Below, one piece after another: positions 61,454 to 64,000 of a stretch of DNA of 64,000 nucleotides (position 1 is the stretch's first letter; every line of letters begins with the position of its first letter). The stretch is from the NCBI RefSeq assembly GCF_013167455.1, contig NZ_CP038332.1. One strand, given 5' to 3'. Position numbers: made by a program. Source of the stretch: Escherichia coli O157:H7 (GTDB lineage Bacteria > Pseudomonadota > Gammaproteobacteria > Enterobacterales > Enterobacteriaceae).

Positions 61454-64000
61454 TCATTTCAATAAACCGGGCGACCTCAGCCATCCCTTCCTGATTTTCC
61501 GCTTTCCAGCGTTCGGCACGCAGACGACGGGCTTCATTCTGCATGGTTGTGCTTACCAGACCGGAGATATTGACATCATATGCCTTGAGCAACTGATAGC
61601 TGTCGCTGTCAACTGTCACTGTAATACGCTGCTTCATAGCACACCTCTTTTTGACATACTTCGGGTATACATATCAGTATATATTCTTATGCCGCAAAAA
61701 TCAGCGCGCAAATACGCATACTATTATCTGGCTTTTAGTAAGCCTTATGTATTTTACCTTTCGTTATGTTAACCAATAAAAATTAAAATCTGCCTTATAA
61801 AAACAAAGCGTAATTACCGCATTCCCGTTTCGTATGGATCCGACTTTATTTGAATAAACGACTTTCCGGAAGTGTACCACCTGAGAAAATCATCATATCG
61901 CTGTTTTCCGCCCCTGCGCGGCGCATCACAGTCCAGAGATACAACACAACATATAGTGCCATGGGCAACTGAATGAGGCACTGCATGCTGTGCTGACGGG
62001 ATGTAACGCTGTGCGGAGGGAGAGGAAGATCCGTAACCACCAGAAACCGGATCTGACCAGGAAAAGAGAAAGAGTGTATGTAAGTTCTGTACTGTATGTA
62101 TGAATTGTATTGTATGTATTGTGTATTTTTCATACCGGGCATACGATGGCGCCATTCCCTGAGAAACCGGAGCCAGACCATGACATCCCTCTCCCCGGAC
62201 ACCGTCCGCCGCATTGAAGACGCCGCCGCCGCCCTGATCGCCGCCGGCACCCCGAACCCGACCAACGAGCAGGTCCGTCAGCACCTCGGCGGCGGCTCCC
62301 TGTCCCACATCTCCCCGGTGATGCGCGCGTTCCGCGCCCGCCAGCGCGAGCAGGCCACGCCCCTGCCGCCGGAGCTGGCGCAGCTGCTGACCGGCCAGCT
62401 GGGGCTGCTGTGGCAGGCGGCCGTGAAACAGGCTGAAGCCGGGGCCCTGGCGGCGCGCGAGCAGGCCGACGACGACATTGCCCGGGCCGACAAGGAGCGG
62501 GATGAGGCGCTGGCGAACGTGGCCGCGCTGGAAAGCGAGCTGGCGGTGCTGCGCGAGGTGGTGGCCGAACGTGACCGCCTGCTGCAGGAGGTACGCGAGC
62601 TACGCGCGGAGGCGCTGCCGCTGCGCGAGCAGGTGGCCCGCCTGACCGCCACCGGCGAACACCTGGCGGCGCAGCTGCAGGACACGAAGGCGGAGCTGAA
62701 GGAAGCCCGGGAGGACGGCCGCCAGCTTCAGACCGAACTGCTGGCTCTGGCCCGCCAGGACGGGAAGGTGAAGAAATGAGACAGGAAAGAGTATTACGTA
62801 TAAAGGCATTTCGACGGGCACTGGAGCTTGGTGGCGGTGAACGGGCTGACGGGTGTCGTCATTTTCCCCGCTGGAAAACGGAACTGAGGAATTTCCCGCA
62901 CAGCAGCTGCGATTTAGCCAGCAATACTCTGGCGTACTACCTCAAAGAACGAGAGAGATGCCATCCGTGCATCATTTTTATGGAAGGGAACGCTGGCTTT
63001 CATGAAGCGGAAAACTCAACAGTTCACGGGCATGTCATCGTATTGCTGGACGGAGAGTACATCGATTTGACGCTGGATCAATTCGACGAATATCCGGACT
63101 ACATTCCTTACGAACCTGTCGAATCTGACGGGCAGATTGGTAAGCTGTTGCGTAATATCATGAAGCATGAGGACCCGGTAAAAACCCGCCAGATTGATCT
63201 CGATGGTGGCGAAGAGCTGTATGCCTGGTTACGCGATACCGCCGACGAAGTGCTGGCAGCAGATCCGGAATGGCAGGCCCGGGAACGGTCGATAGAAGAA
63301 GCAAGGGAAGCCGCTATTACGGTGTTCCCGTTTCTGTCTGACGTGCAAAAAACTGAGTGCGAACAGGGCCCGGACAGTCAGGAGGCTGCCAGATGAAGAT
63401 TTATCATTACACTGACCTGAACGGCCTGAAGGGCATCATCGAATCAGGCTCACTGTGGGCGACGCACTTTTCCTTTCTCAATGACAGTAATGAGCTGACT
63501 CACGGCATGAACTGCCTTGAGAATGCCCTGCAGTACCTGAGGGACGACTTTAACCCGAAAACCCTTAAGTTCATCGAACAGGCACCCTTATAAGCGGTTG
63601 TGTATGCTGTTTCCCTGGAATGATTTATCCACATATCCGGAGGCTCGATCCAGTAAACAGATCCATGAATGATCAACAAAGGATCCATTAAAGATCCCCA
63701 TACCGCTGCAAACCTTGTCACTCATGGGCCGGGACCACGATCACATAAGCAGTGGCATGTTACTGATAAACTGTAACATGCTAATGATAAGCTGTATTCA
63801 GTAATCCATATACTGAAGTAAGTTAATGACATAAACTATGGTCAGTACGCCAGACTCAGCTGTTAAATACAGGCTGCAGGTTTTTCTTCAGTCAGTTAGC
63901 GGGGCTCTGACACACGATTTGCTGTTTATTCTTTTACTGTCCACAGGCAGGAGGCTTTCTGGAAAACGAAAATTCAGACATCAAAAAACTGTTCGGCGAG

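Follow-up and report, generated by a model that had tools for sequence, protein, structure and literature searches.

Three open reading frames (ORFs) lie on the plus strand between positions 62180 and 63593 of a 64,000-nucleotide stretch of Escherichia coli O157:H7 DNA (contig NZ_CP038332.1; the whole stretch is called the window here), and they raise the question of whether they form a compact system in their own right or are what is left of a larger one. The first-pass annotation had described a KfrA-like gene, a second gene of no recognizable family, and a DUF2971-like stub, and had allowed for either a decaying locus or a compact system. Over positions 61600 to 64000, the sequence matches pO157, a plasmid of E. 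coli O157:H7 Sakai, with 100% identity (NC_002128.1/AB011549.2, positions 26319 to 28719, minus strand). In public records, ORF1 is pO157p27 ("KfrAs"), ORF2 is pO157p26 ("hypothetical protein"), and ORF3 is ECp025.2n ("hypothetical protein"), while some records label these genes "DNA-binding protein"; as the records say no more than this, the locus does not turn out to be a well-annotated partition module. In our view, the locus very likely arose by deletion from a larger cassette encoding a KfrA-type protein, a papain-like protein, a DarT-like ADP-ribosyltransferase (ART), and an AbiJ-like protein.

The third gene and the deletion junction

ORF3 (63393 to 63593, plus strand) has 66 codons. 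Codons 1 to 64 are identical to the start of a 262-amino-acid (aa) DUF2971 protein of plasmids pSFO157 (NC_009602.1) and pRHB18-C12_2 (CP057674.1), and they are followed by Pro and Leu codons and TAA. Records of a 262-aa "DUF2971 domain-containing protein" opening with these 64 codons were found by tblastn against plasmids, so that the view of ORF3 as a DUF2971-like stub holds and its full-length form is present in related plasmids. The BLAST alignment of pO157 with pSFO157 breaks at window positions 63585/63586, corresponding to positions 5193/8036 of the pSFO157 locus (L004). At this junction, 2,842 bp of pSFO157 (L004 5194 to 8035) are missing, with 1 nt of microhomology, and the flanks are 99.95% identical on the left (to 63585) and 100% identical on the right (from 63586). 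Direct reading of the junction sequences shows that the final Pro and Leu codons and the TAA of ORF3 derive from the far side. The stub was thus made by a clean deletion, and of the two initial readings it is the decaying locus that stands. The flank upstream of RepFIB repA (63594 to 64000, plus strand) is outside the cassette, on the right-hand side of the deletion, and is 100% identical to pSFO157 (L004 8036 to 8451).

Two other accounts of the short gene were considered and rejected. Close protein homologues of ORF3 are all ≤95 aa, as for a naturally short family; this was overturned by the tblastn search against plasmids and by direct alignment. An insertion in pSFO157 instead of a loss from pO157 was rejected because the 262- to 280-aa protein is conserved across genera and pO157 apparently lacks part of a common RepFIB flank. 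Full-length DUF2971 relatives are all about 262 to 280 aa, with 100% query coverage, and come from many genera. Among the matches listed, many RepFIB plasmids align only with the last ~200 to 225 nt of the missing segment, which suggests that this part belongs to the RepFIB flank that pO157 lacks. Taken together, the flank pattern and the full-length family show that pO157 lost the segment rather than that pSFO157 gained it. A scan of 5,426 complete E. coli genomes found this junction in 284 and the left-breakpoint sequence in its undeleted form in 61. A literature search on pSFO157 with RepFIB returned nothing on this deletion.

The intact form lies between ccdAB and RepFIB of the F-like plasmids pSFO157 and pRHB18-C12_2. 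The gene order is a kfrA-type gene, a transglutaminase/papain-like gene, and the gene for the 262-aa DUF2971 protein, all three linked by ATGA overlaps, followed after a 35-nt gap by an AbiJ-like HEPN gene and then, in the opposite orientation, by a DUF3800-like ORF. The products annotated for the four-gene versions are a DNA-binding protein, a hypothetical protein of 206 aa, a DUF2971 protein of 262 aa, and an abortive infection family protein of 246 aa. pO157 carries the locus at the same ccdAB-RepFIB position, with ORF1, ORF2, and codons 1 to 64 of the third gene 99 to 100% identical to those of the two plasmids, but it is without ART codons 65 to 262, the AbiJ-like gene, the DUF3800-like ORF, and part of the RepFIB flank. 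A single illegitimate deletion of 2,842 bp in the pO157 lineage would have removed all of these. The 246-aa AbiJ-like protein of the missing segment matches Abi_C (E value of 2.1e-12), AbiJ_NTD5 (2.1e-6), and the PADLOC AbiJ model (3e-9); the Abi_C/AbiJ gene is absent from the window and present only in the intact relatives. The DUF3800-like ORF of pSFO157 (313 aa, L004 6724 to 7665, minus strand) has a weak Pfam DUF3800 match (E value of 0.12), and its homologues are annotated as DUF3800 in other plasmids. The PLSDB gene table for pSFO157 omits this ORF.

DUF2971 has been placed in the HYE clade of ADP-ribosyltransferases, near DarT, with motifs I (His), II (Tyr), and III (ExE) (PMC12522546). 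The full-length protein of pSFO157 matches Pfam DUF2971 over residues 90 to 188 (E value of 1e-10). Its structural model, with a predicted local distance difference test (pLDDT) score of 92.8, has the ART fold, and the closest fold is that of DarT. A search with the DUF2971-family profile against PDB sequences gave only noise, with no sequence-level match to a solved structure; in this search and the corresponding one for the ORF2 family described below, the noise matches were of the kind of GABA receptor and TRM6, with E values of ~0.2. Residues H5, N30, E34, S89, W91, R92, G93, Y94, Y127, E183, E185, and R187 are invariant in the DUF2971 family, and the stub keeps the first three. ORF3 thus retains H5 (motif I) and N30/D31/E34, while S89 to Y94, Y127, and E183/E185/R187 are missing, and with them motif II (SQWRGY) and motif III (ExE). 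Compared with DarT and with Aristaios, a single DUF2971 protein of lactococcal plasmids that confers abortive-infection phage resistance in Lactococcus (PMC11381338), the pO157 gene is reduced to 64 codons that include neither motif II nor motif III. Against Pfam, ORF3 has no DUF2971 (PF11185) match and only subthreshold matches to Tox-ART-HYD1 (0.059) and DarT (0.19); as the stub is without residues 90 to 188, where the Pfam DUF2971 model matches, it is invisible to Pfam. It does have a PHROG match to the front of a 395-position family. By its sequence, ORF3 is best described as a pseudogene fragment, the first quarter of a putative DarT-like ADP-ribosyltransferase gene.

The retained genes and the upstream repeats

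The three plus-strand ORFs are coupled by ATGA overlaps, as had been described. The ATG of ORF2 (62776 to 62778) overlaps the TGA of ORF1 (62777 to 62779), and the ATG of ORF3 (63393 to 63395) overlaps the TGA of ORF2 (63394 to 63396). Shine-Dalgarno-like sites are found ~7 nt 5' of each of the three starts: GGAG at 62169 to 62172 for ORF1, the purine-rich GGAAGGTG at 62763 to 62770 for ORF2, and AGGAGG at 63380 to 63385 for ORF3. The start of ORF1 differs by record. In AB011549/NC_002128, it is the ATG at 62096 (684 nt, 227 aa), and in the NCBI RefSeq annotation of pSFO157, it is the ATG equivalent to 62180 (600 nt, 199 aa). We rejected the 62096 start because it lies inside a repeat array that varies by 9-nt units between plasmids.

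ORF1 (62180 to 62779, plus strand, 199 aa), the G+C-rich gene of the locus, matches Pfam KfrA_N (PF11740) over residues 10 to 121 (model positions 3 to 113 of 113) with an E value of 9.2e-20. The tail of ~100 residues (100 to 199) is rich in Ala, Leu, Glu, and Arg and has one Pro. When it is read in heptads, L, I, V, M, or F makes up 57% of the a/d positions, against 35% in shuffled sequences, and only 1 of 2,000 shuffles reached 57%. Weak matches to coiled-coil segments of SMC, Rad50, and LmuB agree with the heptad signal. The KfrA_N match and the heptad tail together identify ORF1, at the sequence level, as a predicted short DNA-binding protein of the KfrA type with a coiled-coil tail, in agreement with the first-pass annotation. 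The ratio of nonsynonymous to synonymous substitution rates (dN/dS) against relatives is 0.2 to 0.3.

ORF1 resembles KfrA of the IncP-1 plasmids RK2 and R751 and the IncU plasmid RA3 in joining a KfrA_N head to a heptad coiled-coil tail, and in being first in its operon with short iterated repeats 5' of it. Studied KfrA proteins have roughly 300 to 350 aa, so that ORF1 is shorter than these. Unlike in kfrA-kfrB-kfrC, no homologues of kfrB or kfrC follow ORF1, and the next gene encodes a protein with an enzyme-like predicted fold, not an alpha-helical KfrC-like one. Also, the partition genes of pO157 are sopA and sopB, in place of an IncC/KorB segrosome.

Upstream of ORF1, 9-nt direct repeats containing TGTAT (62075 to 62125, plus strand) form a candidate KfrA operator. 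The array has three copies of the octamer TGTATGTA, at 62075, 62093, and 62111, and the rest of the window has only one more; Tandem Repeats Finder gives a period of 9 or 18, and TGTAT is at −83, −74, and −65 relative to the ORF1 ATG. The copy number is variable, with a difference of 9 nt in pRHB18-C12_2 and of 27 nt in metagenome contig L009 (about eight units), and the flanks are conserved (compared at window 62075 to 62125, L003 ~3665 to 3730, and L009 5261 to 5335). Variation in copy number between conserved flanks is as expected for an iterated operator. In RA3, the KfrA operator consists of five 9-nt repeats across the −35/−10 region of its own promoter, which KfrA represses (PMC7783346). 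By analogy, the array probably overlaps the operon promoter, and the ORF1 protein would bind the repeats and control its own operon, in the manner of KfrA of RK2, R751, and RA3.

ORF2 (62776 to 63396, plus strand, 206 aa) had been described as having no recognizable family. For sequence profiles this is correct, as nothing matched at E ≤0.001 in Pfam, NCBIfam, PADLOC, or PHROGs; the best subthreshold matches were YunG (0.057) and phrog_26734 (0.077), and the ORF2-family profile gave only noise against PDB sequences. The family comprises 140 Enterobacterales homologues, all labeled "hypothetical." Among 30 aligned sequences, H86 is invariant, and C45, D97, and D101 are conserved in at least 90%. 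The dN/dS is 0.20 against a relative with 79% amino acid identity.

For predicted structure, the description no longer applies. An AlphaFold2 model of ORF2, with the homologue alignment as input, has a mean pLDDT of 89.9, and Foldseek searches of AFDB with this model returned "transglutaminase-like" proteins and McjB C-terminal domains. The model places the Cys on the N-terminal helix, followed by the His and Asp on strands, which is the arrangement of the transglutaminase/papain-like fold. In predicted fold, ORF2 resembles protein-glutaminase, the SseI/PMT-C3 deamidases, LapG, and the lasso-peptide protease McjB, yet its sequence identity to these Cys-His-Asp enzymes is only 9 to 18%. The model thus points to a transglutaminase/papain-fold protein with a plausible Cys45-His86-Asp97/Asp101 set, and Cys45, His86, and an Asp would plausibly be a catalytic triad. 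The protein may be a Cys-His-Asp enzyme acting together with whatever variable gene is coupled downstream.

Distribution, mosaic history, and plasmid setting

ORF1 was found in 575 PLSDB plasmids, and by tblastn the protein was found in plasmids of E. coli, Klebsiella, Salmonella, Citrobacter, Serratia, and Yersinia. The full-length DUF2971 protein was matched in 518 PLSDB plasmids, 173 of them with at least 80% coverage; below this coverage, the plasmids among the matches listed mostly have the fragment of residues 1 to 64. At least 80% of the missing segment is held by 70 plasmids. In other plasmids, the ART gene is broken in further ways: proteins P0009 and P0011 end at other junctions, P0016 has an internal deletion, and P0172 is an in-frame kfrA-ART fusion. 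We also observed a kfrA-ORF2 fusion (protein P0136), and a 45-aa ORF after kfrA in a plasmid of S. salamae (L019 4597 to 4734) that is a candidate stub only.

The genes of the cassette do not share one history. Between pO157 and metagenome contig L009, kfrA is 94.6% identical at the nucleotide level and ORF2 only ~49%, with the boundary at window position 62776 (L009 6001). Synonymous divergence (dS) against contig L007 is 0.16 for kfrA, 0.53 for ORF2, and 0.25 for the DUF2971 gene. The unequal dS and identity indicate that these genes have not evolved as one unit and that the break falls between kfrA and ORF2, which suggests recombination at this junction and a kfrA gene that serves as a conserved "head" for variable cargo. 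The proposal that ORF1 came from a different source than its neighbors gains support from this mosaic boundary.

The associations of both genes with other partners are consistent with such modularity. Of nine kfrA-headed loci that were compared, six have the kfrA gene and ORF2 overlapping by 4 nt, and some of these six have no DUF2971. The partner coupled to ORF2 in a Yersinia plasmid is a 269-aa gene unrelated to DUF2971. In a plasmid of Klebsiella, a 354-aa gene unrelated to ORF2 is coupled to kfrA and followed by an AIPR protein gene, and the defense-type cargo behind the kfrA heads of other plasmids includes AIPR and Abi family proteins. Other members of the ORF2 family stand without kfrA: on an Escherichia sp. 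contig, one overlaps a 379-aa gene adjoining genes for a RES-domain protein, DUF4145, and AAA_15; in Cronobacter, one follows a KAP NTPase gene; and another adjoins DUF6685 (these kfrA-less loci are at L014 5001 to 6664, L016 2739 to 5579, and L012 5001 to 6600). Their neighborhoods look like defense islands. The variable genes coupled to ORF2 or kfrA (379, 269, 354, 178, and 313 aa) have no match in PADLOC or NCBIfam. As a separate observation, otherwise different contigs (L007 40 to 683, L009 289 to 932, L014 1159 to 1802, and L016 6036 to 6679) share a MazE-antitoxin/PIN pair, with identical gene sizes (76 and 138 aa) on each, no more than a few kilobases from their ORF2-family genes.

On pO157, the locus lies between ccdA, ccdB, and resD (minus strand) on one side and RepFIB repA on the other, the start of which is immediately past the window end. 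The ccdA gene (61419 to 61637, minus strand) is 542 bp upstream and divergently oriented. Just upstream of ccdA is an AT-rich overlapping palindrome, CATATCAGTATATATTCTTATG (61670 to 61691), which possibly belongs to the promoter/operator region of ccd. Rfam has no match within the three-ORF locus. Elsewhere in the window, it detects an ALIL pseudoknot (58650 to 58766, plus strand, 121.5 bits), a frameshift element of IS3-family insertion sequences, placed in the IS629 copy that adjoins the truncated RepFIA rep gene of pO157.

Possible function of the ancestral cassette

What did the intact cassette do? By resemblance to known families, it may have been an abortive-infection or toxin/addiction module with the ART and the HEPN protein as its effectors. 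The abortive-infection assignment is plausible but falls just short of probable. The pO157 copy would then be disarmed, with only kfrA and ORF2 still potentially functional. Several points weigh against a defense role. The functional part of the argument rests on family resemblance; no PADLOC model significantly matches ORF1, ORF2, or the DUF2971 protein; the KfrA proteins studied to date serve plasmid maintenance, not defense; and a simple consensus scan of the plus strand upstream of ORF1 did not find a sigma-70 promoter. The occurrence of kfrA and ORF2 without DUF2971, and of ORF2 homologues without kfrA, means that the four genes are no obligate unit.

A wider reading, which we put forward only tentatively and regard as rather unlikely in its entirety, would make the kfrA head and its 9-nt operator a conserved expression platform of Enterobacterales plasmids. 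Behind it, ORF2 or an unrelated second gene would be coupled to swappable effectors (the DarT-like ART, the 269- and 379-aa proteins, and neighboring AbiJ, AIPR, and Abi proteins), giving a family of modular abortive-infection/addiction cassettes. The pO157 copy would be a disarmed member, and the loss of its effectors would set the plasmid of O157:H7 apart from that of sorbitol-fermenting O157:H−.

The main rival to a defense role is that kfrA and ORF2 are a functional plasmid-maintenance accessory, like kfrA-kfrB-kfrC, with DUF2971 and AbiJ as mere passengers. It is a serious possibility, if not the probable one. KfrA of R751 and RA3 aids stable inheritance, autoregulates, and binds partner proteins; the 4-nt overlapping pair recurs as described, including where DUF2971 is absent; the locus sits amid the maintenance genes ccdAB, resD, sopAB, and RepFIB; and both kfrA and ORF2 are under purifying selection. 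However, a Cys-His-Asp enzyme-like fold is not what would be predicted from the alpha-helical KfrB and KfrC, and ORF2 homologues lacking kfrA adjoin KAP NTPase, RES-domain, and DUF6685 genes. An unrelated second gene after some kfrA heads, and the translational coupling of ORF2 elsewhere to variable downstream genes, also speak against a dedicated maintenance pair.

ORF2 could instead be the antidote to a DarT-like toxin, by comparison with DarG and DarT, in which case pO157 would be left with an orphan antitoxin. The ATGA overlap with a downstream toxin-like gene, the DarT-like fold of the full-length third protein, and the breakage of the toxin-like gene at several points elsewhere while ORF2 survives in pO157 are all consistent with this. 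We nevertheless find it improbable. ORF2 has neither a macrodomain nor another known ADP-ribose hydrolase fold, and, unlike in DarTG, a macrodomain (DarG-type) match is absent among the cassette proteins of pO157 and pSFO157. ORF2 is also found with non-ART partners or with none, and we found no precedent for papain-like reversal of DNA ADP-ribosylation.

The base composition could be read as a sign of a recent foreign import into pO157 specifically. The G+C content is 0.73 to 0.74 over positions 62150 to 62749, against 0.38 to 0.52 on either side, and ORF1 has 72.7% G+C and 89.5% G+C at third codon positions (GC3), against a GC3 of 54.1% for the adjoining ORF2. The observation that the first gene is richer in G+C than the backbone is therefore right. 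It does not extend to a "high-GC three-gene operon," however, because ORF1 is the only G+C-rich gene of the three: ORF2 has 52.2% and ORF3 47.8%, with 48.3% for the whole window. This restriction to ORF1 counts against a recent import, as does the presence of G+C-rich kfrA (GC3 of 0.82 to 0.86) in Enterobacterales plasmids and contigs of several sources (L007 to L011; nucleotide identity of 90 to 95% for L007 and L009), and we consider a recent import very improbable. As kfrA is present in many Enterobacterales plasmids, any import would be older than pO157, and such an older foreign origin of kfrA is possible. Opposite the G+C-rich kfrA, there are antisense ORFs of 135 and 164 aa (62278 to 62685 and 61814 to 62308, both on the minus strand), which are probably a by-product of the high G+C content.

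Least credible of all is a complete compact system with the 66-aa product as a natural small protein, since, although ORF3 keeps a strong AGGAGG and an ATG and is identical in hundreds of pO157 plasmids, these plasmids belong to a single clone-like lineage, codons 65 and 66 and the stop codon derive from beyond the deletion junction, all uncut relatives have 262 to 280 aa, and the stub contains neither the region that defines DUF2971 in Pfam nor catalytic motifs II and III.

Much of this locus was known before. The genes have been annotated since the 1998 pO157 deposit, both recognizable families are known, and an operon type of DUF2971, Abi_C, KfrA_N, and a papain-like dermonecrotic-toxin fold was noted in a 2025 survey (PMC12522546). 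Current understanding is not overturned. To this, the present analysis adds a map of the deletion at base level, the predicted fold of ORF2, independent evidence of a DarT fold in the full-length ART, the 9-nt array, and the mosaic kfrA head. As a consequence, the "hypothetical protein" ORF3 in hundreds of pO157 records would be better described as a pseudogene fragment, and the "hypothetical protein" ORF2 gains a model-based, fold-level label as a putative transglutaminase/papain-like Cys-His-Asp protein. As a genetic marker, the deletion cleanly tells pO157 apart from plasmids of the pSFO157 type. If the intact cassette is an abortive-infection system, then O157:H7 would have lost a plasmid-borne phage defense that its sorbitol-fermenting relatives have kept.

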